Source: a bacterium
Lineage (GTDB): Bacteria; Patescibacteriota; Minisyncoccia; 1-14-0-10-42-19
Length of the DNA stretch: 55,030 nt
Assembly (NCBI GenBank): GCA_030690215.1
Contig: JAUYHD010000011.1
Coordinates: 1-55,030 of the forward strand
Direction: 5' to 3'
Within the stretch, counting starts at the first letter, position 1. Every line of letters begins with the position of its first letter. The position numbers and the translations under genes are program-made. Of the stretch, positions 1,512 to 21,985 are shown one piece after another. Below the pieces are notes generated by a model. It had not been told where the DNA came from. It saw nothing but the letters and a program-made list of their open reading frames with translations, and made no database searches.

Positions 1512-1540
1512 ATTGTACCATTTAAGCCGGGAAAAATCAA
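1512..1540 (-). promoter_or_regulatory. sigma70 promoter of the PLP-enzyme gene
   Basis: Minus strand TTGATT-17 bp-TACAAT with TG extension. Confidence 0.65.
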
Positions 1541-1869
1541 CCCCGTAAGACAATATCGCATAATACGTCATGCGTTCGCCGCTCACTACACGCGCACTGA
1601 TTTGTTTTCTTGCTTTCCCAAAAATGTTGTTTTGTAAAATGACATATAAGAATGCATCATGCGATATTGCTCTACGGGGTCAACCCCCGTTTGGCTAAAT
1701 CGAACCGTCTTCCTCGCTGCATCTACCAGCAAGTCTCGATGGCATACTCAACGGAACATTGCTTCTTCAATCATGAATGGCATTCCGTAAGACGTAGATG
1801 CGGCTTTCGATTTTGCCTAACGGGGTCAACCCCATTAGATAGAGCGTTGCAAAGCCCGCTCATCTAACG
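1541..1869. repeat. Tandem array of three CCCCG...CGGGG hairpin elements (A1 1541-1679, B1 1685-1825, D1 1830-1869) separated by TCAA
   Basis: Terminal inverted repeats CCCCGT.../...ACGGGG; homologous copies at 14916-15382, 23351, 30526, 37290, 49672. Confidence 0.9.
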
Positions 1870-1889
1870 CCCCCCCCAGCAACACAAAA

Positions 1890-1917
1890 TAAAAAACGGA
1901 CATTGCTGTCCGTTTTA
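1890..1917 (-). terminator. Intrinsic terminator of the Glu dehydrogenase gene
   Basis: AAAACGGACA-ttgc-TGTCCGTTTT hairpin with T-run. Confidence 0.7.
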
Positions 1918-1931
1918 TACTACTTTTTATC

Positions 1932-3645: not shown

Positions 3646-3984
3646 AAAAAAATAGTACCAAGAAGTACAAAAAAACAAAATATTTAATCTGTCAATTGCA
3701 TGCTATAATAAAAATAGACACAAAACATGCAATTCACAAATACCCCAAAAACGCCTTGAAATAAGAACTATTTTAAGGTAAGCGGCAGTAAGAAGCAGCA
3801 GACAAAAACGGCATTACGGAATAAAAAAAGAACTTTGACAACCCCTCTTTCACTCGAAAGAGGGGTTTGTGTCAATAAACTGTGAATAAAGCGTGAGTAA
3901 CACGTTAAAAATACAGGGAAAAATCAGTCTGCTTCCTAACGCCTACCTTAGAAACTATTGAAAAATAAGCTTTTTCATTAGGTC

Positions 3985-4500: not shown

Positions 4501-4511
4501 CAAGAGTACAT

Positions 4512-4886: not shown

Positions 4887-4892
4887 ATTCTA

Positions 4893-5441: not shown

Positions 5442-5445
5442 AGTA

Positions 5446-5832: not shown

Positions 5833-5874
5833 GCCAATTTTTATTATGAGCGAAAACGAATAACTATAAAATTG

Positions 5875-6027
5875 CGCCTATTCCTCGGCATATGTATACT
5901 TCGTGAAAATGCGGGATCTTCGCCCATTCAACTACTCGCTCGCGCTCGCAGGAATGGGCGGGGGTTTTGCAGTCGCTCGCGCCAAATGCGCATTACGCAT
6001 CTCGCGCGAGCGAGCAAATTCACTTTA
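5875..6027. repeat. ~153-bp GC-rich multi-hairpin repeat, copy 1 (between rpsN and rpsH)
   Basis: Near-identical to 10112-10265. Confidence 0.92.
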
Positions 6028-6210
6028 CCATGATGACTTCTTAACGCCGGGGAGCATGCCTTCGTTTGCAAGCTCACGGAAACAGATACGACATAAATCA
6101 AAATCCCTCATATACCCGTGCTTGCGGCCGCACCGAAAACATCTTCGCACAACGCGTGATTTGTATTTTGGCTTCTTTTTCGCTCTCGCGATTACTGATT
6201 CTTTTGCCAT
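6025..6210 (-). CDS. rpsN: 30S ribosomal protein S14, zinc-binding type
   Basis: RCFRCGR...[16 protein letters not shown]. Confidence 0.98.
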
Positions 6211-6253
6211 GCCAATTTTGTTTATGAATACAATGAATAACTATAAATTTGGC

Positions 6254-6805
6254 TCATTTTTGCGGGTCAATTCTTTTAAAAGGAAATCCTAATTGGGTAA
6301 AGAGCGCCATTGCCTCTTCTTTTGAACGGGCGCTTGTAACAATAGTAATCTCAAACCCAAAAATAAGCTTTGCGTCTTCACCCACCATCTCTGGAAATAC
6401 AATATGTTCTGGGACCCCTATTGTCAAATTGCCCGACCCATCAATCGCAGAGTTTTTTATGCCGCGAAAGTCTCTCGTACGCGGGAGCGCAACAAAAATA
6501 ACACGCTCAAGAAAATCATACATACGCTGCCCACGAAGGGTTGACGCATATCCGATGATCTGCCCCTGGCGCGTTTTAAAAGTAGCAATTGATTTTTTCG
6601 CTGGACGCGGGGCTACTACCTGCCCCACGATAAGCTGTAAATCCCGAACTATCTGTTTTTGTTCTTCTTCGGTTCTCCGCCCCACGCCGACATTCACCAC
6701 AACCTTAACAATCTGGGGTATTGCCATAGGATTATCGTACCCGAATTCCTTTTTAAAAAACGGCATAACTTCCTTTTTATATTGTTTTTGCAATGCTGTT
6801 TCCAT
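6254..6805 (-). CDS. rplE: 50S ribosomal protein L5
   Basis: KVVVNVGVG, TLRGQRMYDF, LPRTRDFRG. Confidence 0.98.
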   Translation of the reverse strand: METALQKQYKKEVMPFFKKEFGYDNPMAIPQIVKVVVNVGVGRRTEEEQKQIVRDLQLIVGQVVAPRPAKKSIATFKTRQGQIIGYASTLRGQRMYDFLERVIFVALPRTRDFRGIKNSAIDGSGNLTIGVPEHIVFPEMVGEDAKLIFGFEITIVTSARSKEEAMALFTQLGFPFKRIDPQK

Positions 6806-6807
6806 AA

Positions 6808-7137
6808 TTATATGTTATTCTTGCATTTTTTACATACACGAACCTTTTTCTTGTCCTCGCCCGTACGAAAACCAACACGCGTCGGCTTACCGCACGATCC
6901 GCACACCACCGAAACATTTGATGCGTGGATCGGCATCGCAAGCAATACTTTTTCTCCTTTTTTCCCTTGCTTGCGCGAACGTCTGTGGCGAGTTTGCATA
7001 TTCACGTTCTCAATAATAACGCGGCCATTTTCCAAAAAAACGCTTACAACTTTACCGGTTTTCCCTTTGTCTTTCCCTGAAAGCACTCGCACCGTATCCC
7101 CCCGCTTTATTCTTGTTTTTGCCTGCATCATTGCCAT
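6808..7137 (-). CDS. rplX: 50S ribosomal protein L24
   Basis: KOW motif IKRGDTVRVLSGKDKGKTG, PIHASNV. Confidence 0.97.
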   Translation of the reverse strand: MAMMQAKTRIKRGDTVRVLSGKDKGKTGKVVSVFLENGRVIIENVNMQTRHRRSRKQGKKGEKVLLAMPIHASNVSVVCGSCGKPTRVGFRTGEDKKKVRVCKKCKNNI

Positions 7138-7141
7138 ATGC

Positions 7142-7507
7142 CTACACCACCTCCTGCGCTAAACCAATAATCTTTGCGTACTTTTCCCGTAATTCACGGG
7201 GGATAGGCCCGAATATGCGCCCCCCGCGCGGCTCTCCCTTTGCGTCAACCACTACAACCGCGTTGTCATCAAACCGGATGTATGAACCATCCTTCCTTCG
7301 GAACGCCTCGCGCTGTCTTACCACCACCGCCCGTACAACTTCTTTTTTCTTCAAAATCTTTCGCGGTTCTGCAACCTTCACCGACCCCACAATAACATCG
7401 CCGATACGCGCGTACCGCTTTCGCGTTCCCCCCAACACCTTAAAACACTGGATGAGCTTTGCTCCGGTGTTATCGGCTACCCCCAACATTGTTCGCGGTT
7501 GAATCAT
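7142..7507 (-). CDS. rplN: 50S ribosomal protein L14
   Basis: MIQPRT, ADNTGAK, RFDDNA, RIFGP. Confidence 0.98.
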
Positions 7508-7512
7508 AAAAA

Positions 7513-7755
7513 TTATATTTTTTCTACCACAAGCCAGCACTTGTCCCGGGATATCGGACGCGATTCCTGGATAATAACGGTATCGCCAACCTGATATTGG
7601 TTTGTTTCGTCGTGTGCTTTATAGCGCTTGCTTCGCTTAATGTATTTTTTAAATACCGGATGCTTCAAATAATTGTGTACTTCTACCACAGCCGTTTTTT
7701 GGCCTTTATGCGAAACTATCTTTCCTTTTAATTTTTTCTTTGTTGGGTTATTCAT
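7513..7755 (-). CDS. rpsQ: 30S ribosomal protein S17
   Basis: [26 protein letters not shown]. Confidence 0.97.
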
Positions 7756-7939
7756 GATTTTCTTTGTTCGTGCGGGTAAAAATACGCGCAATCGTCCGCC
7801 TCATTATTTTCCCGTTCTGATTATTTTTCACTTTTCCTTGCCCGACCTGAAAACGAAACTCGCGGAGCGCATTGCGGGTCTCTTTCAATAATTGCGCGAG
7901 CTCCTCGGTATTTTTATGTTGTATGTCTTTCATCTTCAT
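7748..7939 (-). CDS. rpmC: 50S ribosomal protein L29
   Basis: LREFRFQ, RRTIARIFT; operon position. Confidence 0.95.
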   Translation of the reverse strand: MKMKDIQHKNTEELAQLLKETRNALREFRFQVGQGKVKNNQNGKIMRRTIARIFTRTNKENHE

Positions 7940-8056
7940 ATGTTTATTCCTACAAAAAATACGAATACTTACAAAATTACAAAAACCTATCCCACTCTTT
8001 CGTACGTTCGCGTATGTTTATAATTTCATAGGATTTCATATATTCGTGGGGGTGTG

Positions 8057-8470
8057 TTACTCACGAAACACAACTTTTGTGCGCATAGGGAGTTTGGCAC
8101 CCGCACGCCGTAAGGCTGTCCGGGCATCCTGCTCCGAAATGCCGTCAACTTCAAATAATATCCTTCCTCTGCCCACCTCTGCGACATATTTTGAAGGATC
8201 GCCCTTCCCTTTGCCCATTCCTACTTCCGGCGGCTTTTGGGTGATTGGCTTGTCGGGGAAAATACGAATCCAGAGCTTTCCTCCCTTTTGCACAAAACGG
8301 GTGATTGCCTTCCGCGCAGCCTCAATTTGGCGCGAATCAATTTCTGCCGCGTCTTCCGCCTGAAGTCCGGCGCTCCCAAACGCAATTGCCGTCCCTCGAG
8401 AAGCGACTTTATTCGCATTCCCTCTCATGCGATGCCATTTTCTGTATTTTACTTTCTTTGGAAATAACAT
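8057..8470 (-). CDS. rplP: 50S ribosomal protein L16
   Basis: [27 protein letters not shown]. Confidence 0.98.
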
Positions 8471-8479
8471 ACGTTCGTA

Positions 8480-9151
8480 TTATTGTTTATTTTTTACATC
8501 TTTCACGAATTTTTCTCCGCGATAGATCCATACTTTAATGCCAATATCACCATACGGTAAATGCGCGCGCTCCCGAACAAAATCAATGTCCGCACGAAGC
8601 GTCTGCAACGGCACACGCCCCCTCATAAGCCACTCCACCCGAGACATTTCTGCTCCTCCGAGCCGTCCCGATAACTTTACTTTGACACCCTCAACATCCC
8701 TGTTTGTGATTACCTTATCAAGCGTTTTTTTCATAACACGGCGAAACGGCAACCGTCGTTCCAAATCCTCCGCAATCATTTGCGCCACGATAGCGGCATT
8801 GCTTTCGGGTGATCGAAGCTCTTCGATGGATAATTTAATCTCCTGCGGAATCGGCAGCTTTAATCGCTGCATACGCCGTATAGTCTCTTTGCGCAATGTT
8901 TCAACGCCTTCGCCTTTCTTACCGATAAGCATACCGGGTCGGGATGTGCTGATAATAAAATGCAAAAGAGTCGGTGAACGCTCTATAATAATATCAGAAA
9001 CATATGACCCGCGGAGCCGCTTTACAAGCCATTCTCGCATCAGTATGTCGCTCTTCAAAAACGTATGATATCCTTTTTTATTAAACCAGCGTGACTTCCA
9101 ATCACGAAGAATGCCTAATCGAAATGAATATGGATGAACAGTGTGGCTCAT
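8480..9151 (-). CDS. rpsC: 30S ribosomal protein S3
   Basis: HPYSFRLG, RPGMLIG, GRLGGAEM, PLQTLRADID. Confidence 0.98.
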   Translation of the reverse strand: MSHTVHPYSFRLGILRDWKSRWFNKKGYHTFLKSDILMREWLVKRLRGSYVSDIIIERSPTLLHFIISTSRPGMLIGKKGEGVETLRKETIRRMQRLKLPIPQEIKLSIEELRSPESNAAIVAQMIAEDLERRLPFRRVMKKTLDKVITNRDVEGVKVKLSGRLGGAEMSRVEWLMRGRVPLQTLRADIDFVRERAHLPYGDIGIKVWIYRGEKFVKDVKNKQ

Positions 9152-9615
9152 AGTGATGATATCGGATTAAGTGTAATCTTTTTTTTGTTTATTTCTTTAA
9201 CTTCTTCCGTGACGATTGGTGTTTTGGGCGTTTTATTTTTTTTGGATGCGGACATTTGGACTTGGGGCTTCTTGGCGGTGCGGCGTTCTTCCAACACAAG
9301 AGTAATGTGGCTCGTTTTTTTACGGATAAGCGTCGCGCGCCCCATGGCCCGCGGCGAATAGCGCTTTAATACAGGGCCCTCGTCCACCCGAATTTCCGAT
9401 ACATACAAATGCGCGTCCTCCATATGAAAATTATGCTTTGCGTTTGCCTCTGCCGATTGTAATAATTTTTTCATCGGAAGCGACGCGCGTTTCGGAAGAA
9501 ACGACAAAATCTGAATTGCGTCCGTTACGTCTTTTCTTCTAATGGCATCGGCTACAAGCCGCACCTTTCGGGGCGCTATACGCAGATGTTTTAATTGTGC
9601 TTTTACTGCGGGCAT
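9148..9615 (-). CDS. rplV: 50S ribosomal protein L22 with C-terminal extension
   Basis: RIAPRKVRLVAD, SAEANA, PRAMGRA, TSHIT. Confidence 0.97.
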   Translation of the reverse strand: MPAVKAQLKHLRIAPRKVRLVADAIRRKDVTDAIQILSFLPKRASLPMKKLLQSAEANAKHNFHMEDAHLYVSEIRVDEGPVLKRYSPRAMGRATLIRKKTSHITLVLEERRTAKKPQVQMSASKKNKTPKTPIVTEEVKEINKKKITLNPISSL

Positions 9616-9620
9616 AGTGT

Positions 9621-9935
9621 TTATTGTTTTTTAGCTTGTATATCCGTTTCTTTCGCGCGCATTTCTGTTTCTTTTTGTAATTTTCCTCCGTGCCGTACAA
9701 ATTTGCGCGTGGGCGAAAATTCACCAAGCCGATGGCCAACCATCTCTTCGGTAACTTTCACCGGAATAAAATCTCTTCCGTTATGCACGCCGAACGTAAA
9801 CCCGACCATTTCAGGCGCAATCTGGGAATCGCGCGACCAGGTCTTTACAACCGTATTGTATTCCGGCTTCAATACGCTTATCTTTTTCAGTAGCTTTGGA
9901 TCCACATACGGACCCTTTTTCGCTGATCGTGTCAT
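9621..9935 (-). CDS. rpsS: 30S ribosomal protein S19
   Basis: [27 protein letters not shown]. Confidence 0.98.
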
Positions 9936-9980
9936 GCCAATTTTATTTATGAGCAGAGCGAATAATTATAAAATTGCGCA

Positions 9981-10038
9981 CCCAGCACATAACTTTGTAT
10001 TGAAAAAAATATTTATGAATACAAAGTTATGTGCTGGG
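9981..10038. repeat. Palindromic element CCCAGCACATAACTTTGTATT...AATACAAAGTTATGTGCTGGG
   Basis: 21-bp perfect inverted repeat; degenerate relative at ~40021-40217. Confidence 0.85.
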
Positions 10039-10111
10039 TAAAGTCACCGCGCTGTTCACGAAGCAAGTTTTGATGTACAAAACGTAGCTGAGTGATTACA
10101 GTGCGCGACCC

Positions 10112-10265
10112 CGCCTATTCCTCGGCATATGTATACTTCGTGAACATGCGGGATCTTCGCCCATTCAACTACTCGCTCGCGCTCGCAGGAATGGGCGGGG
10201 GTTTTGCAATCGCTCGCGCCAAATGCGTTTTTACGCATCTCGCGCGAGCGAGCAAATTCACTTTA
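10112..10265. repeat. ~154-bp multi-hairpin repeat, copy 2 (between rplB and rpsS)
   Basis: Near-identical to 5875-6027. Confidence 0.92.
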
Positions 10266-11096
10266 ATGTTTCTTTTTCTTGCGTCCTTGCATAATTAACG
10301 CATTTGAATATTTTGTTTTCTTCCGGGTTTTCACGCCGCGCACCCCTTTGCCCCACCTGTTCTTTGGACGTTTAGTCCCACGAGGCGCTTTTCCTTCGCC
10401 TCCCCCATAGGGATGGTCAACCGGATTCATGGCAGATCCTCGGACAGTCGGTCGGACTCCCATCCAGCGAGTTCGGCCCGCTTTGCCGTACACAACAAGG
10501 TTATGTTCGCTATTTGAGGCTTGCCCTACGCTTGCCCAGCAGGAACTAGGAATTTTGCGCACCGTTCCTGACGGAAGTTTGACCAATGTATACCCAGAGT
10601 CATGCGCCATGACCTCCGCACTATTTCCCGCAGAACGCACAAGCCGCGCACCGCTCTTAGGGTAAGTTTCAATATTATATACCGAAGTACCTACCGGCAT
10701 CAAGTCCAGGGTGAGACGCGCACCGGGCAGTGGTTCTTGGGTTTTGCTTGTACGCATCACGTCTCCTGTTTTCAACCCTTCGGGCACTATATGGTAGCGA
10801 TGCTCACCGTCAGCATATAAAACATGCGCGATAAAAGCTGTGCGGTTCGGGTCATATTCAATGCTTATCACACGGGCAGGAATGTCAATTTTGTTGTAGT
10901 GAAAATCAATTTCGCGCCACAAGCGCTTTGAACCGCCTCCTTTGTGACGGGTTGTGATTTTGCCTGACGCACGCCCTTTCGCGCGCTTCCGTCCTGAAAC
11001 AAGCGCCTTGTAGGGTTCTGACTCGGTTAACACCCCGCGGTATGTCACCGTAGTCATTTGTCTTCGTGATGGGGTTGTTGGTCTATATGATTTCAT
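10263..11096 (-). CDS. rplB: 50S ribosomal protein L2
   Basis: IEYDPNRTA, RSAG, RPTVRGSAMNPVDHP.GGGEG. Confidence 0.98.
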   Translation of the reverse strand: MKSYRPTTPSRRQMTTVTYRGVLTESEPYKALVSGRKRAKGRASGKITTRHKGGGSKRLWREIDFHYNKIDIPARVISIEYDPNRTAFIAHVLYADGEHRYHIVPEGLKTGDVMRTSKTQEPLPGARLTLDLMPVGTSVYNIETYPKSGARLVRSAGNSAEVMAHDSGYTLVKLPSGTVRKIPSSCWASVGQASNSEHNLVVYGKAGRTRWMGVRPTVRGSAMNPVDHPYGGGEGKAPRGTKRPKNRWGKGVRGVKTRKKTKYSNALIMQGRKKKKH

Positions 11097-11211
11097 ATAT
11101 ACGTGATGCTCATCTACGAATCTTATGCTAATCTGCAAATTGCTAATACTATGTTTACGCAATATTCGCAATTCGCATTATTGGCATGACATTCGCTGAT
11201 TGGCATAACAA

Positions 11212-11655
11212 CTATACAAATTCTATTTTTTCACCTTTCTTTAATGTAATCATTGCTTTTCGGTAGCCTGGCTTTGTCCCTACAACACCGCGAAGCACGC
11301 GGCGTTTAGACTGGACATGCGACACATTCACGGAACTCACGCGCACCCGATATAATTCTTCAACCGCTTTGCGAATTTCGTTTTTCGTCGCCTCCCCCGA
11401 CACCCGAAATGTATAGGTGCCATGTTCTGCAAGACGCGCGGACTTCTCGGTTACGGACGGCTGGATCAACACGCGCGCGGCCTGATTGGACGCATACGTC
11501 GTGCTTCCTTTCTTTTCTTTTTTATCTGTTGTTTGTGTGTCAGGTTTTTCTGCGACTTCTTTTTGCGTTTTCTCTTTTGTCCGTTCACGGTATCGCGCGT
11601 CTCGTCCCTCTTCTTTCCTTCCTTTTTTTGTTTTAAAAATATCAAATAGCGCCAT
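11212..11655 (-). CDS. rplW: 50S ribosomal protein L23 with ~55-aa charged N-terminal extension
   Basis: P.VTEKS, YTFRV, ATKNEI, KAMITL. Confidence 0.95.
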   Translation of the reverse strand: MALFDIFKTKKGRKEEGRDARYRERTKEKTQKEVAEKPDTQTTDKKEKKGSTTYASNQAARVLIQPSVTEKSARLAEHGTYTFRVSGEATKNEIRKAVEELYRVRVSSVNVSHVQSKRRVLRGVVGTKPGYRKAMITLKKGEKIEFV

Positions 11656-11660
11656 ATGTG

Positions 11661-12308
11661 TTATGAAATTTTCTTTTCTAATACGGAAATGCTTTCTTTC
11701 GGCAACATGACGTACTGGGAACCCAACAAATCAAGCACATTAAGATTCCGCGCCTCTGTTACCGTAACGCCATTCATGTTGCGGAGCGCGCGGATAGTTG
11801 CCGCATCGTTTGACGGAATAAGCACAAGAACTTTTCCTTTGCCGAGACGCTCAAATCCATTAATTCCCGCGAGTATTTTTATTACCGACGCTGCCGCTTT
11901 TGTCTTTGCCTGCGTACATGAAAATTCATCAAGCACCAAAACAGTATGTTCACGAAACTTTTGAGAAAGTACTGAAAACACTGCTTTTCGCTTCATTTTT
12001 TTATTTATCTTTTTTGTATAATTGCTCTCGGAGCGCGGACCATGCGTTACCCCTCCCCCGATCCAAATGGGCGAACGAATTGAGCCGTGTCGCGCGCGCC
12101 CCGTGCCTTTCTGGCGCCATGGCTTTTTTCCTCCTCCGCGCACTTCACTCCGATCTTTTGTATGGGCGGTTCCTCTGCGCTTATTTGAACGTTCGGATTC
12201 GGCTACCTGCCACACAAGAGCGGGACTCCACGCTACATCAAAAAGCGCGCTCGGCATTTCAAGCGTTCCTGCTTTTTCTCCTTTTTGATTGTAGATAGTC
12301 GTTTTCAT
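11661..12308 (-). CDS. rplD: 50S ribosomal protein L4
   Basis: GGGKKPWRQKGTGRARHGSIRSP. Confidence 0.98.
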   Translation of the reverse strand: MKTTIYNQKGEKAGTLEMPSALFDVAWSPALVWQVAESERSNKRRGTAHTKDRSEVRGGGKKPWRQKGTGRARHGSIRSPIWIGGGVTHGPRSESNYTKKINKKMKRKAVFSVLSQKFREHTVLVLDEFSCTQAKTKAAASVIKILAGINGFERLGKGKVLVLIPSNDAATIRALRNMNGVTVTEARNLNVLDLLGSQYVMLPKESISVLEKKIS

Positions 12309-12315
12309 AGATCGC

Positions 12316-12978
12316 TTATTTTTTCTTTTGCTCCTTTCCTTTAATTTCCACGAGGGACCCGAACGCGCCCGGCAACGCGCCTTTCAACGCGAGTATGTTC
12401 TGTTTTATATCAATTTTCACCACCCGGACATTTTTTAGGGTTACTCGATCACTCCCCATACGACCGCCCATGCGCATACCTTTCGCCACCTTTCCTCCGG
12501 CGCGTCCCGAACTCCCCCCGATAGAGCCGGGCTCGCGTTCGGAATGCTTCTGTCCATGGGTTCGCGGGCCCCCGTGGAACCCATGACGCTTTACAACGCC
12601 CTGAAACCCCTTTCCCTTAGAAACGCCGCTCACTTCTACCTTTTCTCCTTCCTGAAACACGGACACGGTAACATCATCTCCTTCTTTCATAGCGGTGTCG
12701 CTATCCATTTTCATTTCTCTCATCCATCGTATGCCCGAGTTTTGAGTTTTGAGTTTTGAGTTTTGAGTTTTCCCAAGGTGCCCTTGTTGGGGCTTCTTCA
12801 TCTTGCTTTTGCTCTTTTTGCCGAACCCAATCTGCAAAGCATCGTATCCGTCTTTTTCCTTCGTTTTTATCTGGGTCACTACAACCGGACCCGCCTGCAC
12901 TAAAGTCACGGGGGTTACATTTCCCTCGTCATCAAACACCTGCGACATTTCTAGTTTTTTCCCTAAAATAAACTTCAT
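12316..12978 (-). CDS. rplC: 50S ribosomal protein L3
   Basis: PVTLV, DGYDALQIG, SKGKGFQGVVKRH, REPGSIG; contains (GAGTTTT)5 at 12737-12771. Confidence 0.98.
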   Translation of the reverse strand: MKFILGKKLEMSQVFDDEGNVTPVTLVQAGPVVVTQIKTKEKDGYDALQIGFGKKSKSKMKKPQQGHLGKTQNSKLKTQNSGIRWMREMKMDSDTAMKEGDDVTVSVFQEGEKVEVSGVSKGKGFQGVVKRHGFHGGPRTHGQKHSEREPGSIGGSSGRAGGKVAKGMRMGGRMGSDRVTLKNVRVVKIDIKQNILALKGALPGAFGSLVEIKGKEQKKK

Positions 12979-13114
12979 ATGCCAATTATAAAATTAAGGT
13001 TTGATAGTGCTTTTTGCCTCCGGCAAAATCGCACATCAATTTTCTTCATTGAAAAAATCCCGGCATAACGGGATTTTCAAAGCATCGTAACCCGAATAAT
13101 GCACTTTCGCTATG

Positions 13115-13522
13115 TTACATCATTTTTACCTCAATATCAACGCCTGCTGGCAGGTTAAGATTAGTCAGCGCATCAATGATGCGGGGCGTTGGGTTAAGGA
13201 TATCTATCAGCCGTTTATGGACTCTCATTTCAAACTGCTCTCGCGCATTTTTATGCACGAATGTTGAACGATTTACGGTATATTTGCGTATCTCAACCGG
13301 AAGCGGCACGGGACCGGTAAGTTCCGCGCCGTATCGACGTGCAGTCTCAACAATCTGCTTTACCGATGAATCAAGGATCTTGTGGTCGTAGGCACGAACA
13401 CGAATGCGAAGCTTCTGCGGCAATGCTTCCTCAGAAGGCGCTTTTTTCCTGATTACCGTCTTTGCTGGTGCGCTTTTTTTGGGAGCGCTTTTCTTTTTTG
13501 CTTTTGATTGAGTCGCTGTCAT
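13115..13522 (-). CDS. rpsJ: 30S ribosomal protein S10 with Lys-rich N-terminal extension
   Basis: [29 protein letters not shown]. Confidence 0.98.
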
Positions 13523-13630
13523 GTGCCAAAAATTAAGGAACGTAGTTGATTATAATATTTGTATACCCCCTCCGATTTCACAATTGAAAACAGGCGCTAA
13601 TAGGTCGCAGGGGTTGCTGTTATCGCAATC

Positions 13631-14824
13631 CTACTTGGTAATCTTGGTGACAACACCCGCGCCCACGGTCTTTCCACCTTCACGAATAGCGAATCGTTGC
13701 TTCTCCTCCAACGCAACAGGCGCTATCAATTTCCCGGTGAATGTAATGGTGTCGCCCGGCATAACCATTTCGGTTCCTGTGGGCAATGTCACCTCTCCGG
13801 TAACGTCAGTGGTGCGAATGTAAAATTGGGGTTTGTATCCGGTAAAGAACGGGGTGTGCCGTCCTCCCTCTTCCTTGCTTAATACATATACTTCCGCTTC
13901 AAATTCTGTGTGAGGAGTAACCGATCCCGGCTTTGCCAAAACCTGCCCTCGCTCAATATCTTCTTTCTTAAGACCGCGGAGCAAAATACCTGCATTGTCC
14001 CCCGCCATACCTTCGTCCAATGATTTATTGAACATTTCGATTCCGGTGACAGTCGTCTTTGCGGTGTCTTTAATACCGATAAGCTCAATATCGTCTCCTA
14101 CTTTTACCTTTCCTCGCTCAATACGGCCGGTAACAACAGTCCCCCGTCCTTCAATTGAGAAGATGTCTTCGATAGGCATCAAAAATGGTTTTTCTATTTC
14201 CCGCACCGGTTCAGGGATAAATTCATCAAGCTGACGCGCAAGTTCCAAAATCGGCTTTGCCCATTCGCTATCAGCAGAGGTTGCTTCAAGCGCTTTAAGG
14301 CCCGACCCCCGAATAATAGGGGTTGTGTCTCCCGGATATTGGTATTTTGTAAGAAGCTCGCGGATTTCTGCTTCAACAAGGTCAATAAGCTCTTTGTCAT
14401 CAACCGTATCAACTTTGTTCAAGAAAACAATGATTGCAGGCACTCCAACTTGGCGCGCAAGAAGAATGTGCTCGCGCGTCTGAGGCATTGGTCCGTCTGC
14501 CGCAGACACTACAAGAATTGCGCCGTCCATCTGTGCCGCTCCTGTAATCATGTTTTTGATGTAATCAGCGTGACCCGGCGCGTCAATGTGCGCGTAATGA
14601 CGCTTTTCTGTTTCATATTCTGAATGGTGAAGCGCAATGGTAATACCGCGCTGCCGTTCTTCGGGCGCCTTATCAATGTCTGTAACCTTTTCCATCTTTA
14701 CCTTGTTCCCCGCAAGATTCAAGACATTTAAAATCGCTGCGGTCAACGTTGTTTTTCCATGGTCAACGTGACCAATGGTACCGACATTTACGTGCGGTTT
14801 TGTTCGTTCAAATTTTTCTGCCAT
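13631..14824 (-). CDS. tuf: Elongation factor Tu
   Basis: [33 protein letters not shown]. Confidence 0.99.
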
Positions 14825-14886
14825 AGTGTCTTATATAGAATAGACTAATAAAAATAAAAAAACCTTTTTATAAGGATATAGAGACA

Positions 14887-14915
14887 ATAATAACGGAGGG
14901 GTCAAAAGAAGTCAA
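14887..14915 (-). promoter_or_regulatory. sigma70 promoter of tuf
   Basis: Minus strand TTGACT-17 bp-TATTAT. Confidence 0.7.
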
Positions 14916-15382
14916 CCCCGTAAGACAATATCATATAATAAGTCATGCGTTCGCCGCCAAAAGCACAAAAACCATTGTATTTTGTTGTTTTTCCGGGAAT
15001 ATTGTTTCGCATAATGACTTATAAGAATGCATCATATGATATTGCTCTACGGGGTCAACCCCGTTAGAGCGTTGCAAGGCCCGCTCATCTAACGGGGTCA
15101 ACCCCGTTTGGCTAAATCGAAAGCTGTATCTACGTCTGACGGATACTGTATGTGGTTAAAGAAACAACGGTCCGTTGAGCATATTGTCGAAATTTGCTGG
15201 TAGATACAGCAAGCCCCGTTTGACACTATCACATGGTAAGTCATGCGTTCGCCGCTTTTATTATGTGTATAGTAGATTTCTTTTTCATTGTACATATATT
15301 GTCCACACAAGGACTTACAAGAATGCATTATGTGATAGTGTCTTACGGGGCAAGGAAGACGATTCGATTTTGCCTAACGGGG
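14916..15382. repeat. Tandem/nested array of CCCCG...CGGGG elements: A2 14916-15054, D2 15059-15097, B2 15102-15382 containing nested A3 15214-15350
   Basis: Units separated and flanked by TCAA; nested unit flanked by CAAG on both sides. Confidence 0.92.
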
Positions 15383-15481
15383 TCAAGCATCCAGTAAAAC
15401 TTGCTGAAGGCAAGCAAAATAGGCAAAAATAGCCATTCGGGGCGAAAAAAAGCCGCACAAACAATATGCGCGGCCCGGGTA

Positions 15482-15769
15482 TTACTTTTCTATTTTTTCT
15501 ATACAAATGCCCTTTCCGGCAAAGCGTTCATTAAACCTCTCTACCGAAAAACAAGGCATTTCTAGGATATCTATCATAAGGATCTCGCCCCCTGGATATG
15601 AGATGCCGAAAATTTCATCCGGCCCATTACCAGTAATGGTAATGGTATATTCCGTTAGTCCCCTGTACCGCCCCGCTTCTTCTTCCAAGAACAATCGTAT
15701 TGAATGGATGTAGATATTATCCCGTCTCTTCGAATCTAATTTATTTATTCTTTCGCTAAGCACTGACAT
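15482..15769 (-). CDS. Hypothetical protein
   Basis: AAGGAG SD, own TTGACA-17-TATTCT promoter (15802-15830). Confidence 0.7.
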   Translation of the reverse strand: MSVLSERINKLDSKRRDNIYIHSIRLFLEEEAGRYRGLTEYTITITGNGPDEIFGISYPGGEILMIDILEMPCFSVERFNERFAGKGICIEKIEK

Positions 15770-15956
15770 TACACTTCTCCTTTTTTAATTTGCTTTCTGT
15801 CAGAATAGCATTCTTTATGGTTTTTGTCAAGCGCGTTCGTAACCCCAGAGCCAAGCTCTGGGGCTTGGCGCGGGGTTGTCAAGAATTACGAATGGGCATA
15901 AAAAAACGGACCAAGGTTTTGGTCCGTCTAATTCTTATATTTGCTATCCTACCCTT

Positions 15957-16259
15957 CTAACGAAAAATTGAATGTGTTAATAAATGAAACACCGAAATGC
16001 CCATAAACAATTCAACGTATATAGCAATCGAGATTACCCATGATGCAAAAAGAAATGGCAGCAAGATATAAAAAATCACATAATACAATGCTACCGCCCT
16101 GCTTGATGCGAAAAATCCCCCACTACTGTCTTTTGTGAAGCACGCTATTATTCCAGCCGCAGTAATCAGGATTGAAAAAATGGCGAGCGACCTCATCGTG
16201 AGCAAAAATCCAAGAATACCCCCCGCCACAAGCGCGAGCGCAATATACCATTTAGACAT
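15957..16259 (-). CDS. Hypothetical membrane protein
   Basis: Hydrophobic, GGAGG SD, overlaps upstream ORF stop; terminator at ~15903-15927. Confidence 0.65.
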   Translation of the reverse strand: MSKWYIALALVAGGILGFLLTMRSLAIFSILITAAGIIACFTKDSSGGFFASSRAVALYYVIFYILLPFLFASWVISIAIYVELFMGISVFHLLTHSIFR

Positions 16260-16623
16260 ACGCTCGACCTCCCATCGACCGAAATCCCATTTTACGAAGC
16301 TGGATAAGGGTCCTCATCGATGTTTCCTTCGGTCGCCCCACAAAGACCATTTCACCGGAATACAGAACAAAATATAGGTTATTGCCGTAAAGTCCTCGTA
16401 TCTTTATACTGCCATCCACATCAATTACCCGTTTTCTTTCCTTTTTTATACTGGGATCTTTTGCGTACATCTTATTCCATTTTTTTAAAAACGCCTGGAA
16501 AGAAAATCCTCCCATTTTTTCGGCATGATCCCTCATGAATTCTTTTTTTAACTCCTTGTCATCCCCGCATTCTACCTGCGCGAATTTTTCAAACGCATCT
16601 TTTTCATAAATGAATACCGGCAT
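16252..16623 (-). CDS. Hypothetical protein
   Basis: AGGAGG SD, coupled ORF. Confidence 0.65.
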   Translation of the reverse strand: MPVFIYEKDAFEKFAQVECGDDKELKKEFMRDHAEKMGGFSFQAFLKKWNKMYAKDPSIKKERKRVIDVDGSIKIRGLYGNNLYFVLYSGEMVFVGRPKETSMRTLIQLRKMGFRSMGGRAYV

Positions 16624-16837
16624 GCTTTTCCTCCTTTTGTGACTTTGTACTTTTAAATTCTTCGTAAATTGTTTTATAACACTCGCAAGTTTTGCTTAAA
16701 GATTCGGGGCTCCCGCCTAATCGAAACGCGAAATAACATCCGCGCTCTTTATGCATTTTGCATTCATTCGCCTGTTGGGTTTCTGCAAATCTACGCCTTA
16801 TACCATCTTCATCTACAAGGGATTCCTTGCTCATCAC
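16604..16837 (-). CDS. Hypothetical protein (Cys-containing)
   Basis: GGGGGA SD, promoter-like upstream sequence. Confidence 0.55.
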   Translation of the reverse strand: MMSKESLVDEDGIRRRFAETQQANECKMHKERGCYFAFRLGGSPESLSKTCECYKTIYEEFKSTKSQKEEKHAGIHL

Positions 16838-17003
16838 TTCCCCCCTTTATTTTCAAAGAACAAAAATAAAATAGCACATTTTATATTATTTTTCAAACAT
16901 CCAGCAAAATGAAAAACAAACTATTCGCCTATTCGCGCGAATTAGAGATTGGGAAAACAATGCGAATAAATAAAAACCGCAGGGCAAACCGTGCGGTTAT
17001 TTT

Positions 17004-17291
17004 TTACATTAAATGCTGGTCAAAACTGTCCAACACGTCATCTTTCGAATATGCGCCTTCTTCTGCGGACCATAACTCAATAATATCGCCCCACAGTAAG
17101 ACCACATTCGTAGTAAAGACGTAGCCATCTACTCGTATGTTTATCCCCTCTGTCGTCACACCCCCCAAAATCGCTTCGTCCGAAGAAGATCCTCCAGCCA
17201 CAACTACATGCACCCTATCTCCATATTTGAGATTGCTTTGTAAAAAATCCTCTTTGCTCTGAATATTTACAGGTACTTTTGTGGTGCTCAT
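17004..17291 (-). CDS. Hypothetical protein
   Basis: AGGAGG SD, ATGA overlap, terminator at ~16972-17003. Confidence 0.65.
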   Translation of the reverse strand: MSTTKVPVNIQSKEDFLQSNLKYGDRVHVVVAGGSSSDEAILGGVTTEGINIRVDGYVFTTNVVLLWGDIIELWSAEEGAYSKDDVLDSFDQHLM

Positions 17292-17590
17292 TCGCTTGCC
17301 TCCTTTTTGGATGCTTCCTTTTCTTTTTCGCTAAGTTCGCGCAAACGTATGTGGGACGCCATGCCAAACGGCGTAATCCTGTCATAACTAGGCCACTCAA
17401 GCCCGCACATAGAAGCAAACATCTTTGCCTCCTCGCCCGTAACATTGAAATCTGCGGCATCTCGCCCTCTAAGTGTAATGGAAACATTATATTCCGTCCC
17501 CTCTTCAATCAATTCTTCTGCGCCGGCCTTAATTTCTTTTTGCCTTTCTTCCGGCAGTTCTTTTATTCTTTCATCAAGCGTTTTACCCAT
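17288..17590 (-). CDS. Hypothetical protein (start MGKTLD)
   Basis: AAGGAG SD; own promoter-like region. Confidence 0.6.
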   Translation of the reverse strand: MGKTLDERIKELPEERQKEIKAGAEELIEEGTEYNVSITLRGRDAADFNVTGEEAKMFASMCGLEWPSYDRITPFGMASHIRLRELSEKEKEASKKEASE

Positions 17591-17696
17591 TTCTATTCTC
17601 CTTGTTAATTTCCAATCCAAAAACAAAATAGCACGGAAATGTTTATTTTTCAATACCAAAAAATAAAGACCGCGGAATGCGCGATCTTTTTATTTT

Positions 17697-18881
17697 TTAA
17701 CTAAGGAGTCTTTGAAATAAAAATTTACTGATATCAATAGAACTTTTTTCATATAAAGCAAGCTCCGATACGACTTCGCCGATTGCAGCAGAATGCTTAA
17801 AGCCATGCCCGGAACAAGGAGAGGCAACAATAATATTTGGATGATCTGGAAGAAAATCAATTATAAAATTTCTATCGGGAGTGATTGTATACAAACAAGA
17901 TACTGCTTTCAGGCATTTGCTCCTCAAAGCCGGAATGCGATTATAAACGCGCTCGCTATACATAATTTGAATTTCCTCGTCTGATACTCTTTTGTCTACA
18001 CTGTCTGGGTCCACAAACTGCTCGTATTGTTCAGAACCAATCTTAAGCCCTCCGTGTATCCCATCTATCGCGGGAAATCCATACATAGACCCCCTACCGA
18101 ATTCCCAAATAAAAATTGGGAAATTTTTAGGAAGAAATGATTGTGCTGATTTTTTTGATTTTTGTATATCAAACCACAAAAGTATTTGGCGAGATATACG
18201 AAAATAACGAGTAAATTCTTCACCAAGTATTTTTGATACCCATGCTCCCGCAGAGACAACAACCTTTTTCGCAATATAATTTCCCCCCGTCGTCTGCACA
18301 GTTACCATGTCATTGTTTAATTCGGTTTTAATAGCGAGAACTTTTTCGTTAAGAAAAATTTCTGCCCCTATTTCTTTTGCTAATCGTAATTGGACCTCAA
18401 CGCACCGCTCTGGCCGCAAAAATCCCGCCCCATATTCATAATACCCCTCTTCGTCGCCGACAAGATTAAATTGAGGAAAATAATTTCGTATTTCGTCGGT
18501 ATCAAGAAGCATATGCGGGATATTATGTTCTTTTGCCGTAGTAATTGTGTTCTGAAAAAATGTACTAATACCTTTTATACGGCGCAGGGAAGACCGACTG
18601 GACATTATTAATCCTCCGATTCTTTCAAAAAGTTCTGTCCCTGTGGTCCGTTCTAATTCTCGCCAAATTTCATTTGATCGTAAGACCAAAGGAACATACT
18701 CTGCCCCCTCTCCAAGCGCCTGACGAGTTATCCGAGTGTCTCCGTGCGTAGAACCAAAATGATGAGGAGGAGAAAATTGATCTATCCCAAGCACATCACA
18801 GCGTCTCTTCGCAAGTTGATACAAGGCAGCACTTCCCATGGCACCCAGACCCACGACAATAACATCAAATATTTTTTTCAT
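17697..18881 (-). CDS. solA: N-methyl-L-tryptophan/sarcosine/pipecolate oxidase family flavoprotein
   Basis: VVGLGAMGS, GSTHGDTRITR, CLYT-TPD (covalent FAD Cys), CSGHGFK. Confidence 0.9.
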   Translation of the reverse strand: MKKIFDVIVVGLGAMGSAALYQLAKRRCDVLGIDQFSPPHHFGSTHGDTRITRQALGEGAEYVPLVLRSNEIWRELERTTGTELFERIGGLIMSSRSSLRRIKGISTFFQNTITTAKEHNIPHMLLDTDEIRNYFPQFNLVGDEEGYYEYGAGFLRPERCVEVQLRLAKEIGAEIFLNEKVLAIKTELNNDMVTVQTTGGNYIAKKVVVSAGAWVSKILGEEFTRYFRISRQILLWFDIQKSKKSAQSFLPKNFPIFIWEFGRGSMYGFPAIDGIHGGLKIGSEQYEQFVDPDSVDKRVSDEEIQIMYSERVYNRIPALRSKCLKAVSCLYTITPDRNFIIDFLPDHPNIIVASPCSGHGFKHSAAIGEVVSELALYEKSSIDISKFLFQRLLS

Positions 18882-18989
18882 TTTTTGCTCCTTTTCAATT
18901 TTCAATCCAAAAACAAAATAGCGCTTTTGGATGGTATTGTCAATACAGACGTCTTTCGATATAGTGAGGGGCAAGAGGAGAAAAAATAA

Positions 18990-19169
18990 ATGAATAAAAG
19001 CATCCAACGGGAATTGGAACGGCTAGAAGATATCGGCGCAATAATAAAAATTGATGGAAATACAATAACGATATATCGGGGAGTCGTCCCTCAAGACATA
19101 GTGGAAGCATTCAAAAATCGCATCAAATCACATGATACGAAAAACGACATAGAGGTCATAATAAAATAA
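18990..19169 (+). CDS. Small hypothetical protein (59 aa, below ORF-track cutoff)
   Basis: MNKSIQRELERLEDIG...IEVIIK*, GAGGAG SD, followed by hairpin AAACGGCATGCGTGCATGCCGTTTT. Confidence 0.6.
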   Translation: MNKSIQRELERLEDIGAIIKIDGNTITIYRGVVPQDIVEAFKNRIKSHDTKNDIEVIIK

Positions 19170-19191
19170 ACGGCATGCGTGCATGCCGTTT

Positions 19192-19398
19192 TTATATCGG
19201 GAGATTCTCCAAATCTTTTTCTACTTCAAAATCCTCCTCCAACAGCTCTTCGGAGTATAGCTTGTCTCGCCCCGCATCAGCAGGGACGGATTTTTCTTCC
19301 TCGCCCGCCATAGCCCATTGCCCTTCCGAAGCCTCTGGCGAAGGAGGGTTGGCGAAGGCCGGTTCTATTTTTTCATTTTTTTGGTCTCGGGATTGCAT
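19192..19398 (-). CDS. Small acidic protein carrying in-frame palindromic repeat insertions
   Basis: ORF follows 19408-19833; GC-rich hairpins at ~19267-19290 and ~19303-19362. Confidence 0.45.
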   Translation of the reverse strand: MQSRDQKNEKIEPAFANPPSPEASEGQWAMAGEEEKSVPADAGRDKLYSEELLEEDFEVEKDLENLPI

Positions 19399-19407
19399 AT
19401 TAAAAAA

Positions 19408-19833
19408 TTATTTATTTTTAAGAATTTCTTTAATCCTTTCGGATGTTATATCTACAGCCTCATCATACTTTTTCCAATTTTTTCCTAATTCTTTCGCAAG
19501 AAGCTTTTCAATCTTCAACGCAAAGAGATGTTCGCGGCGGTATGGGGACAATTTGAGAGAGGCGCCTCCTTTAAATCTTCTGAAGCGTCCTTTTGTCTTT
19601 TCGCGCTGGAACCATTCATCAAATTTTTTAATTTTTGGCTCCGGGATTCCTCTTCGTTGAGTAAGATACAATTCAATAAGTTCGTGCACCAAAATAAGAA
19701 AATTATAATCAGGATCTTTAAGGTCGGCACTAACAACATCCCAGCCGGTTTTTGTTTTATAGTAATCGCCAACGGTACAATATCTCATGTTACCCGGAGA
19801 TTGCACGATGAGTTTGTAGATTTTTTTTGACAT
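19408..19833 (-). CDS. Hypothetical protein with HExxE motif
   Basis: RY-TVGDY, LVHELIE, SPY-REH; directly downstream of fusA. Confidence 0.75.
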   Translation of the reverse strand: MSKKIYKLIVQSPGNMRYCTVGDYYKTKTGWDVVSADLKDPDYNFLILVHELIELYLTQRRGIPEPKIKKFDEWFQREKTKGRFRRFKGGASLKLSPYRREHLFALKIEKLLAKELGKNWKKYDEAVDITSERIKEILKNK

Positions 19834-19846
19834 ACGTATTATTTTT

Positions 19847-21985
19847 TTACTCCTCTTTCTTCATTCCGCGAGCTTCCTGGATTTGTTTTGCGATATTTGT
19901 AGGCACTTGCTGGTAATGGCTAAATTCCATTGTATAGGTGCCACGCCCTTGCGTCATAGAGCGAAGGTTTGTTACATAACCGAACATTTCTGAAAGCGGA
20001 ACTTTTGCATCCACTACTTTCAAGTTGTACCGGTCGGTCATACTCTCAATGGTCGCGCGTTTTGAAGAAAGATCGCCCGTCACATCTCCCAAAAAATTTT
20101 CAGGTGCCAACACCTCCACCTTCATAATCGGTTCAAGTAATACTGGTTTTGCACGGCGCGCCGCTTCTTGGAACGCCATGGAGCCCGCGATTTTGAAGGC
20201 GACTTCAGATGAGTCAACATCATGGTATGACCCGTCATACAAAGCGACTTTGATATCAACAATAGGAAAGCCCGCAACAACTCCGCGCGAGAGCGATTCT
20301 TTTACTCCTTTTTCAACCGCAGGAATATATTCTTGCGGAATAACCCCTCCCCTAATTTCGTTTACAAATTCAAAACCCTGCGCTGCCTCCAACGGTTCTA
20401 CGCGCAAACGCACATGCCCATATTGTCCCCGGCCTCCCGACTGCTTGATGTATTTTCCTTCCGCTTCTGCCTTTGCCGTGATCGTTTCGCGAAACGCCAC
20501 CTGCGGTTTGCCTGTATTTGCTTCTACTTTAAACTCACGACGCATACGGTCTACCAGCACTTCCAAGTGAAGCTCGCCCATTCCCGAAATAATGACATCA
20601 AGAGTTTCTTGATCGGTTTCCACGCGGAATGTCGGGTCTTCTTCAGACAATCGCTTGAGTGCTAAACCCATTTTTTCCTGGTCTGCTTTTGTTTTTGGCT
20701 CAATCCGGACAGATACCATCGGCTCCGGAAAATCTATTTTTTCAAGCACGATTGGATTATCGGGATCGCAAAGCGTATCCCCTGTTTTTGTATTTTTAAG
20801 CCCCACAATTGCGCCGATATCTCCCGCGTACATATCTTTTACCTCATCGCGCGAATTTGCATGAATCCGAAGAATGCGTCCAATGCGCTCTTTTGTATCT
20901 CCTATCGTGTTATATACATATGAGCCCGCCTCAAGCACACCCGAATACACGCGGAAAAATGTAAGCTGTCCTACATACGGATCACTTTGCAATTTGAACG
21001 CGAGGGCAGAGAATGGCTCGCTGTCGTCTGCTTTGCGTAAAAGTTTTTTCGATTCGTCTCCCGGCTCAAATCCTTCTACCGGAGGCAAATCTATTGGGGA
21101 CGGCAAATAATCAACAACGCCGTCCAACACCAATTGCACTGCTTTGTTTTTGAGCGCGGAACCCGCAAATACGGGAATCAATTTGTATGATAATGTCGCT
21201 CGGCGAAGAGCGGGACGAAGCTCCGGTTCGGTTATTTCTTTTCCTTCAAGGTATTTTTCGGTAAGAACATCATCGGTTTCTGCGATTTTTTCAACCATCT
21301 TTGTGCGCCATTCTTTTGCGTAGGACGCGAGGTTTTCGGGAATATCTTCTAGGCGGATTTTTTCTCCGTGTTCGCCGTCAAAATACACCGCTTTCATCCG
21401 CATCAGATCAATTATTCCTTTGTGGTCTTGTTCGTGCCCGATTGGAATTGTCACCGCCACCGCATTCGGTGTTAACCGTTCATAGATAGATGCCAGAGAT
21501 TTTTCAAATGACGCACCGGTGCGATCAAGCTTGTTTATAAAACAAACGCGGGGCACTTCAAATTTATCTGCCTGCCTCCATACCGTCTCTGATTGCGGCT
21601 CTACTCCCGCTACCCCATCAAACACAACAACCGCGCCATCCAACACGCGAAGCGAACGCTGCACCTCAACCGTAAAATCAATGTGGCCCGGAGTATCAAT
21701 AATATTTATTTTGTATTCGTTTTTTTTACGCTCGTCTACCTGCTCTGCCCCCAATCCTAAATAGGTAGGCACCCAAAATGCCGTGGTCGCAGCAGACGTA
21801 ATCGTAATCCCCCGTTCGCGCTCCTGTTCCATCCAGTCCATAACCGCCTGTCCTTCGTGTACCTCTCCGATTTTGTGCGAAATGCCTGTATAAAAAAGAA
21901 TCCGTTCGCTTACGGTTGTTTTTCCGGCATCAATGTGAGCAATAATACCGATATCTCGTATTCGTTCTATTGGGGTTTGGCGCAT
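19847..21985 (-). CDS. fusA: Elongation factor G
   Basis: [31 protein letters not shown]. Confidence 0.99.

Follow-up and report, generated by a model that had tools for sequence, protein, structure and literature searches.

Stacks of gene-less inverted-repeat elements at promoter -35 boxes of a Patescibacteria genome, and a GIY-YIG cassette family to which they probably belong

How do short elements of different classes come to be stacked at a single site, always with the same four bases between them? The question is raised by a stretch of 55,030 nucleotides (hereafter the window) from a bacterium of the Patescibacteriota, Minisyncoccia (GenBank assembly GCA_030690215.1, contig JAUYHD010000011.1). 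Upstream of tuf, the gene of elongation factor Tu, three elements with unrelated interiors, called A, D and B here, follow one another with TCAA before, between and after them, and the three classes recur in a second array of the same window. The stack is probably made of gene-less elements bounded by terminal inverted repeats (TIRs) and a 4-bp duplication, which belong to a family of GIY-YIG nuclease cassettes and insert in the -35 box of promoters, a target that renews itself at each insertion; the nuclease would move them in trans. The window is contig C30 of a genome of 1.02 Mb in 38 contigs (G000; 43.5% G+C, 96% complete), other contigs of which are cited below in the same way. Two DNA runs from one study contain the window, both labelled groundwater metagenome, and an Rfam search of it gave two tRNAs and nothing else.

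Direct reading of the tuf array confirms the order TCAA-A2-TCAA-D2-TCAA-B2-TCAA at 14912-15386, with exact coordinates, as a first-pass annotation of this DNA had given it (Table 1). The array sits between the terminator of an upstream 95-aa open reading frame (ORF) and the tuf promoter. The two ends of each element match each other at 15 of 18 positions in A2, 16 of 18 in B2 and 10 of 12 in D2, as expected of MITEs (miniature inverted-repeat transposable elements). B2 was described as a B element interrupted by A3, whose removal with one CAAG would restore 140 bp. This is the case: the restored sequence shares 99% identity with the uninterrupted copy on C26 (G000:C26:18858-18997) and 96% with C36:5026-5165.

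Table 1. Coordinates of the two arrays, of their flanking signals and genes, and of a separate repeat family (window positions unless a contig is named).
Feature	Position	Strand	Basis and remarks
tuf promoter	14887..14915	-	-35 TTGACT (14915..14910), 17-nt spacer, -10 TATTAT (14892..14887)
tuf (elongation factor Tu), served by that promoter	13631..14824	-	Pfam GTP_EFTU 1e-62, with domains D2 and D3
TCAA, first flank copy (TTGA on the minus strand)	14912..14915	+	direct reading; single copy at the empty site of G002 and G001
A2, gene-less element, 139 bp	14916..15054	+	ends CCCCGTAAGAC...GCTCTACGGGG
TCAA, junction A2/D2	15055..15058	+	direct reading
D2, minimal element, 39 bp (two ends and a short loop)	15059..15097	+	direct reading, TIR scan
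TCAA, junction D2/B2	15098..15101	+	direct reading
B2, 281 bp (140-bp B element split by A3)	15102..15382	+	direct reading, TIR scan
CAAG, left copy of the A3 duplication	15210..15213	+	direct reading
A3, A-type, CAAG subfamily, 137 bp, nested in B2	15214..15350	+	99% identical to C9:6246-6382
CAAG, right copy of the A3 duplication	15351..15354	+	direct reading
TCAA, last flank copy	15383..15386	+	direct reading
Terminator-like hairpin of the upstream 95-aa ORF	15450..15476	-	terminator/promoter scan
Promoter of the Cys/Met pyridoxal-phosphate (PLP) enzyme gene	1512..1540	-	-35 TTGATT (1540..1535), 17 nt, -10 TACAAT, preceded by TG
Cys/Met PLP-enzyme gene	194-1453	-	Pfam; GGAGGA precedes its start
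A1, 139 bp	1541..1679	+	preceded by TCAA 1537-40, followed by TCAA 1680-83; 96% identical to C27:10494-10632
B1, with an extra C at the left	1684..1825	+	followed by TCAA 1826-29; interior inverted relative to B2, end polarity towards TCAA kept
D1, decayed D element	1830..1868	+	starts CCCCA, right end lost, then a run of eight C
Terminator-like hairpin of the upstream glutamate-dehydrogenase-family gene	1893..1916	-	terminator scan
Separate repeat family of ~92-100 bp, copy	10109-10200		
Separate repeat family of ~92-100 bp, copy	5875-5963		
Separate repeat family of ~92-100 bp, copy	G000:C34:1826-1917		
Separate repeat family of ~92-100 bp, copy	G000:C8:59851-59950		

These elements have many counterparts in the genome. 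A scan for CCCCG...CGGGG pairs with matching ends lying 30-400 bp apart gave 87 pairs; three shuffled genomes gave 2, 1 and 1. The TIRs measure 11-25 bp, start with CCCCGT and end with ACGGGG. The same flanking 4-mer is found on both sides of 44 of the 85 pairs away from contig ends, as against 1 and 0 when 4-mers are compared at positions shifted by 4 and 8 bases; for those with the longer ends CCCCGT...ACGGGG, identical 4-mers flank 42 of 65, and 1 of 65 in the shifted control. The duplicated 4-mers are few in kind (TCAA/TTGA 19, CATA/TATG 11, CAAG/CTTG 5, CAAA 2, TAAA 2, CACA 2, CGTA 1), and a few copies carry 5-bp repeats (TAAAG, TTTGA, TCAAA). We considered end positions 6-11 as a code for the 4-mer and rejected this, since TCAA elements have several different end sequences. 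The genome also holds a separate repeat family of ~92-100 bp, with ends CCCCGCCTATTCC...GGAATGGGCGGGG and without matching 4-mers in its flanks (Table 1).

Arrays are common in this genome. The junction CGGGG-N4-CCCCG occurs 21 times in the genome (10 with TCAA/TTGA, 7 with CATA, 4 with others) and the opposite arrangement once; the stricter ACGGGG-N4-CCCCGT occurs 16 times and its backwards pattern never. There are 13 abutting pairs, and 24 of the 87 elements have a paired neighbour 4-5 bases off. Units of one array, of whatever class, are always separated by the same spacer (TCAA, CATA, CAAA, TGTG or TAAAG): CAAA is kept through three or four classes at C6:20986-21390, TAAAG is found at C6:63913 and TGTG at C15:13302, and CATA arrays lie at C6:1-590 and C18:56885. 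A B pair joined by CATA at C18:54920-55211 has other bases in its outer flanks (TTTC and TTCC, with TTC in common) and may have moved together, as a dimer. Among 56 other genomes of the class, 5 have the strict junction, each in one or two copies, and one of these 5 gave a match to the backwards control as well; tandem and mixed TCAA pairs occur in junction-bearing genomes too. The junction was not found in the four same-family genomes searched.

Did the elements enter these sites, or were they there from the start? We compared the window with two genomes of the same genus, G001 and G002, the latter 83% identical to it over tuf. Homology with G002 ends exactly at base 14915, and the tuf site reads ...aataagTCAAgcgcc... 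in G002 and ...agagTCAAcaccc... in G001, each with one TCAA and no element. G002 is also syntenic over window 30001-50000, and has a single CATA at the sites of the elements at 37290-37434 and 49672-49816, which makes three clean empty sites in all. At a further site, 30526, G002 reads CAAC and the right side has diverged. The tuf elements thus came into a site at which relatives have one TCAA. TIRs, a duplication of fixed length (with a few 5-bp cases) and presence or absence at orthologous sites, all seen here, are marks of MITEs. We rejected a REP-like reading, in which the junction hairpin itself is the mobile unit: clean duplications and empty sites go with single elements. The exact 36-nt left flank of the array had no match in metagenome contigs, a collection that may omit records near this genome.

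The counterpart of A3 on C9 occupies the matching internal position of a B element that is only 69% identical to B2, although the two A elements are 99% identical; A3-type nesting has therefore occurred repeatedly, at a specific site, and does not go back to a single inherited composite. CAAG-subfamily A elements occupy that position in four B elements in a strict scan, and in a fifth, decayed B on C18.

The second array bears on how stacks are built. It had been read as TCAA-A1-TCAA-B1-TCAA-D1, which holds for the order but not to the letter: there is one extra C (1684) at the left end of B1, D1 begins with CCCCA, and D1 ends ...TCTAACG followed by CCCCCCCC, without CGGGG and without a closing TCAA. 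C runs of variable length stand at other element left ends too, with seven C before a B at G000:C9:6200-6213 besides the extra C at 1684, and eight C at 1869-1876 follow D1, which is truncated. Such runs point to slippage of the CCCC end or, at D1, to an unexplained rearrangement. Both readings bear out that the two arrays hold the same three classes in a different order. They are not copies of each other, since A1 and A2 are 81% and B1 and B2 79% identical, while closer relatives lie elsewhere (96% for A1, 94% for A2 at C15:81007-81145, 99% for B2). The site of this array gave no DNA match in the four same-family genomes searched.

These comparisons leave little room for arrays that grew through duplication in place or through unequal recombination of their repeated ends. 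Near-identical neighbours do exist, as in the tandem B of C3 and C9, in the C18 elements at 56885 and 57035, one base apart in sequence, and in a tandem pair of genome G051. But the window arrays mix three unrelated interiors, the nearest relatives of array members lie on other contigs (94-99% identical) and the site is empty in relatives, so that we regard this explanation as very improbable. Even less credible is that the arrays are assembly artefacts, in which repeats were collapsed or chained. Logan contigs of the two runs do stop inside the outer elements (14940 and 15359 at tuf; 1559 and 1804 at the second array, over window 1-20000). Yet Logan contigs contain both outer junctions of the tuf array (flank-A2 and B2-flank), the same junction type occurs in five other genomes and, with TIR partners, in metagenomes (below), and the clean CAAG and TCAA duplications are unlike chimeras. 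Some Logan joints, e.g. 15210 to 15353 with a G between, look like empty alleles; we rejected them as such and attribute them to cross-mapping of other genomic copies. Empty sites, constant spacers, varying class order and relatives elsewhere all support the proposal of the first-pass annotation that insertion is iterative and regenerates the 4-mer.

The ends are oriented with respect to the 4-mer, which is asymmetric. When this is read as TCAA, the same end lies on the left in 8 of 8 A and 7 of 7 B copies with perfect duplications, and in 9 of 9 and 10 of 10 when imperfect copies are included. Interiors are flipped in two of these nine A and three of these ten B copies (B1 among them). Fixed ends around inverted interiors imply that the outer ends and the 4-mer travel together while the interior can flip, probably through recombination between the inverted repeats.

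What, then, is the target? On the opposite strand TCAA is TTGA, the first four bases of the sigma-70 -35 hexamer. Both window arrays lie between the terminator of the upstream gene and the promoter of the next one, and a promoter scanner calls both promoters. At tuf, where the scan scores 10 of 12 matches and the gene starts about 60 nt past TTGACT-17-TATTAT on the minus strand, the promoter-side copy of the 4-mer provides the first four bases of the -35; at the second array the 4-mer lies within the -35 of the Cys/Met PLP-enzyme promoter. The tuf promoter is the host's own and no part of the element, since it is present in element-free G002 as TTGACT-17-TACTAT. Genome-wide, TTGA in outer flanks is followed mostly by C and then A or T, and TAnnnT stands 16-18 nt after TTGAnn in 15 of 19 outer flanks of TTGA-type loci, against 261 of 3104 (8.4%) for all TTGAYW and 140 of 720 (19.4%) for those outside long ORFs (binomial p = 3.7e-8).

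Metagenomes, used as an independent check, gave the same picture. A query with the 16-nt TCAA junction returned at least 120 matches, and the 80 loci retrieved held 84 of them. Among the matches listed, 35 of the 84 have a TIR partner. In this group TCAA is present on the far side too in 25 of 29 left-hand elements; of its 21 distinct outer flanks, 17 have a -10 at the expected distance, and the hexamer is TTGACA in 13. The 49 listed matches without a TIR partner were set aside as probable chance hairpins. At tuf, at the second array and at most TTGA-type loci here and in metagenomes, the 4-mer is the TTGA of a -35 box.

This changes one part of the first-pass annotation, according to which insertion re-uses the element junction. 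Junctions are re-used, but they are not the primary target, which is TTGAC(A/T), the promoter -35 hexamer. All elements start with C, and junctions are re-used because TTGA and the first C of the element rebuild the target motif. Once an element is in place, the host's C(A/T) again comes after the TTGA on the promoter side, so that the host -35 is restored, and the far TTGA followed by CCCCG reads TTGACC. One target thus becomes two, and any class with these ends can stack. A self-renewing target alone accounts for the re-use of junctions by any such class, and mixed arrays arise as further elements land at the renewed site or inside one another. On a rough count, about 12 of 31 TTGA-type elements occupy element-made sites, as against roughly 4% of non-coding TTGAYW sites. 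With A-type units the junction also creates TTGACC-16-TATGAT facing the gene; at 15055-15058, the minus-strand TTGA with the CC of A2 forms such a promoter-like sequence, which reads into A2 towards tuf. The annotation further held that different classes use the same machinery. They may well do so, judging from their common CCCCGT/ACGGGG ends, their duplication length and their target. Its analogy with cassettes is not supported in the integron sense, the sole tyrosine integrase match being on another contig (Phage_integrase, C5:14558-15082).

A candidate for the moving enzyme comes from the other large subfamily, that of CATA. The elements at 37290-37434 and 49672-49816 are 145-bp B-type elements on CATA, which is here the TATG at which two minus-strand ORFs, of 161 and 390 aa, have their start codons. 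Three 299-bp copies flanked by CATA (on C5, on C8 at 50490-50788, and on C18) contain an ORF that starts in one inverted repeat and stops in the other; the ATG in the TATG flank lies in the same reading frame. The ORF encodes 98 aa with a single GIY-YIG domain (PF01541, residues 11-80, E 1.5e-16) and no other domain. The cassette ends match B-type ends at 18 of 20 positions, and those of B2 are close to them. Across the family the nuclease has ~95-98 aa, and gene-bearing members of ~300 bp code for nothing else. The genome has 17 PF01541 matches, three of them with internal stops and one in a 440-aa open frame that we take for UvrC. An ORF within TIRs recurs in other genomes, at 10 loci, most of which are TATG sites where a gene begins. 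The TCAA-flanked cassette C15:62389-62685 reads TTGACC-17-TAAAGT and then a nuclease ORF with an in-frame TAG, a single example that hints that the -35 lineage borrows a promoter signal as the TATG lineage borrows a start codon.

Further GIY-YIG frames lie in the window. Between tRNA-Lys (35836-35909) and a partial repeat of that tRNA at about 36230-36260, a 94-aa-frame ORF occupies 35968-36168 on the minus strand; a nuclease cassette seems to have entered the tRNA-Lys gene or the DNA just behind it. At 51322-51591, a cassette of about 270 bp with different ends (CACCCCCTCCTTTTAG...) holds a GIY-YIG frame with an in-frame TAG. The tRNA-Pro(GGG) gene at 27009-27082 is bracketed by an inverted repeat matching at 17 of 18 positions (CCCCGCACTAAAATTTTT..., window 26992-27140), and a partial copy of the tRNA end follows.

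One might suppose that a conventional transposase, DDE or other, moves these elements in trans as MITEs and is unassembled or lost, the GIY-YIG gene being a passenger or a separate homing gene with shared ends. TIRs with 4-5-bp duplications are the classic DDE signature, the genome is 96% complete in 38 contigs, and copies of insertion sequences (ISs) lie on tiny contigs. But the ORF spans the 299 bp from TIR to TIR with no room for a second gene, and this layout recurs at the 10 loci of other genomes. Nor do the other recombinases of the genome fit: three rve-type ISs have no CCCCG ends, there is no DDE_Tnp_1 or IS110-type match in the genome, and the two Y1 (RAYT-like) genes (G000:C11:6300-7010 and C15:74900-75500) are flanked by unrelated hairpins. 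The latter, with their own palindromes (TAAACACCGAGTGTTTA; TGTGCAAGACCCGGTCTTGCACA), are a second, separate repeat system. One DDE_Tnp_1_4 (PF13701) match stays below threshold at 13.7 bits; there are two large serine recombinases; and the piggyBac-type model PF13843 matched nothing anywhere, control genomes included, which makes it uninformative. We find a missing transposase quite improbable.

GIY-YIG enzymes leave 3' overhangs, and piggyBac, from which we borrow the model, carries TTAA as an overhang and excises precisely. On these grounds the GIY-YIG nuclease, supplied in trans, would make staggered cuts between the 4-mer and the C that follows, at element ends and at targets, giving 4-nt 3' overhangs. 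Excised units would carry non-palindromic overhangs and rejoin in one orientation, at the same 4-mer, with host ligase and polymerase finishing the joining; the 5-bp cases would need gap filling. Non-palindromic overhangs would entail the fixed orientation, the subfamily-specific 4-mers, the constant array spacer and, possibly, precise excision.

The main rival is a single-stranded route like that called peel and paste, in which the element folds as a single-stranded DNA (ssDNA) hairpin and an Ssn-like, ssDNA-specific GIY-YIG nuclease cuts at its foot. The mobile unit would be CCCCG...CGGGG with one 4-mer, inserted beside an identical 4-mer, and the apparent duplication would be the target plus the 4-mer borne by the element, comparable to the cleavage tetranucleotides of IS200/IS605. 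As ssDNA, A2 (a long hairpin) and D2 fold far better than shuffles (z -7.2 and -5.8), with the 4-mers as unpaired tails. SsnA is a single-domain GIY-YIG protein of 94 aa that cuts only ssDNA, near hairpin repeats on the flanks of its own gene (Chenal et al. 2025, PMC11893778). In the present elements, fixed orientation and subfamily-specific 4-mers fit this route as well. To our knowledge, however, GIY-YIG enzymes form no covalent intermediate, which leaves the joining step without a known catalyst, and duplications of 3-5 bp about one TTGAC motif have the look of staggered cuts of varying width. The solved chains nearest to the cassette nuclease are the UPF0213 proteins 1zg2 and 1ywl, with no Ssn entry among the matches, and the genome has 0 matches to dRS3 (ATTCCC-N8-GGGAAT) or to the NTS core. 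We judge this route unlikely.

Several points also weigh against a stack of elements moved by the nuclease. Strict sticky-end joining is at odds with the shifted duplication at 30526 (TTTG) and with the two of 5 bp (TTTGA), and exact duplications flank 2 of 7 D-type hairpins only. GIY-YIG enzymes are hydrolytic, and we know of none that transposes anything; a transposase could be missing from an assembly that is 96% complete. Intact nuclease genes in this genome are of the CATA type and none has A- or B(TCAA)-type ends; other GIY-YIG cassettes, in five genomes, have heterogeneous ends and flanks, with no intact autonomous copy of the TTGA type among them. The excess of adjacent elements could stem from selection for harmless sites and not from preference. 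Finally, no listed Logan piece bridges either array, and their inner order rests on the assembly.

With these reservations, elements of a GIY-YIG cassette family that renew their -35 target and would be moved by the nuclease remain the probable reading. More tentatively, and with something less than an even chance, we propose that they represent an unrecognised class of transposon. Its only protein would be a GIY-YIG nuclease of ~95 aa, and its ends with the 4-nt overhang would imitate expression signals, the TTGAC of the -35 in one lineage and TATG start codons in another, so that the signal is borrowed and then restored. The arrays upstream of promoters would be the visible by-product of a self-renewing target.

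How do they compare with known systems? Bacterial MITEs such as Correia/NEMIS, RUP, ERIC and Nezha are likewise short, gene-less and multi-copy, with TIRs and target duplications, intergenic near genes, and sometimes nested or in tandem. Here, in contrast, the partner with matching ends encodes a GIY-YIG nuclease and no known transposase, the target is an expression signal (-35 TTGAC or TATG start) restored by the duplication, and orientation is fixed relative to it. Families such as piggyBac/IS1380 duplicate a specific 4-bp target and have ends that begin with C runs, as these elements do, but the target here is non-palindromic, orientation is fixed and the DDE_Tnp_1 search was negative. REP/BIME arrays, which depend on RAYT (Y1) transposases, and the NIMEs of Neisseria resemble these stacks as mosaic intergenic arrays of different short units with a conserved palindromic junction; yet Y1 genes are flanked by other hairpins here and the units have clear duplications and empty sites. 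IS200/IS605 elements hold a Y1 gene and lack both TIRs and duplications, whereas the present elements have TIRs and a duplicated 4-mer and no Y1. Integron cassette arrays are also ordered stacks of independent units growing at a reusable site, but neither an attC-type site nor an adjacent integrase is found here, and the units have TIRs and duplications.

The closest parallel in gene content is Ssn. Chenal et al. (2025, PMC11893778) describe the gene of a GIY-YIG ssDNA nuclease with its own hairpin repeats (NTS/SRM, dRS3) to either side, hundreds of gene-less repeat copies clustering around genes, and a layout, NTS-ssnA-NTS, that the authors liken to an insertion sequence. The cassettes described here share the single-domain gene of about 94 aa with its own repeat on each side. 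They differ in having two ends around a 100-bp interior where NTS is one ~30-nt hairpin, and in their target duplications, empty sites, stacking and promoter targeting, which the first Results section and the Discussion passages of that paper do not report. A search of the full-text literature found no paper on bacterial GIY-YIG transposons with TIRs as their bounds. New here are the arrays, the connection with the -35 box and the fixed orientation.

If the nuclease moves the elements, a class of enzyme would be added to the DDE, HUH, serine and tyrosine recombinases, and the ~300-bp cassette would be the smallest autonomous element that we know of. A nuclease specific for sites like TTGA followed by C could also serve as a reagent. 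The stacks break assemblies, and in Patescibacteria they can mislead those who annotate promoters, start codons and small ORFs. Variable stacks stand upstream of the promoters of core genes, tuf among them, and may alter expression. Insertion on -35 hexamers and start codons in such a way that the signal is rebuilt would explain how mobile DNA can survive in the tiny, gene-dense genomes of the candidate phyla radiation.

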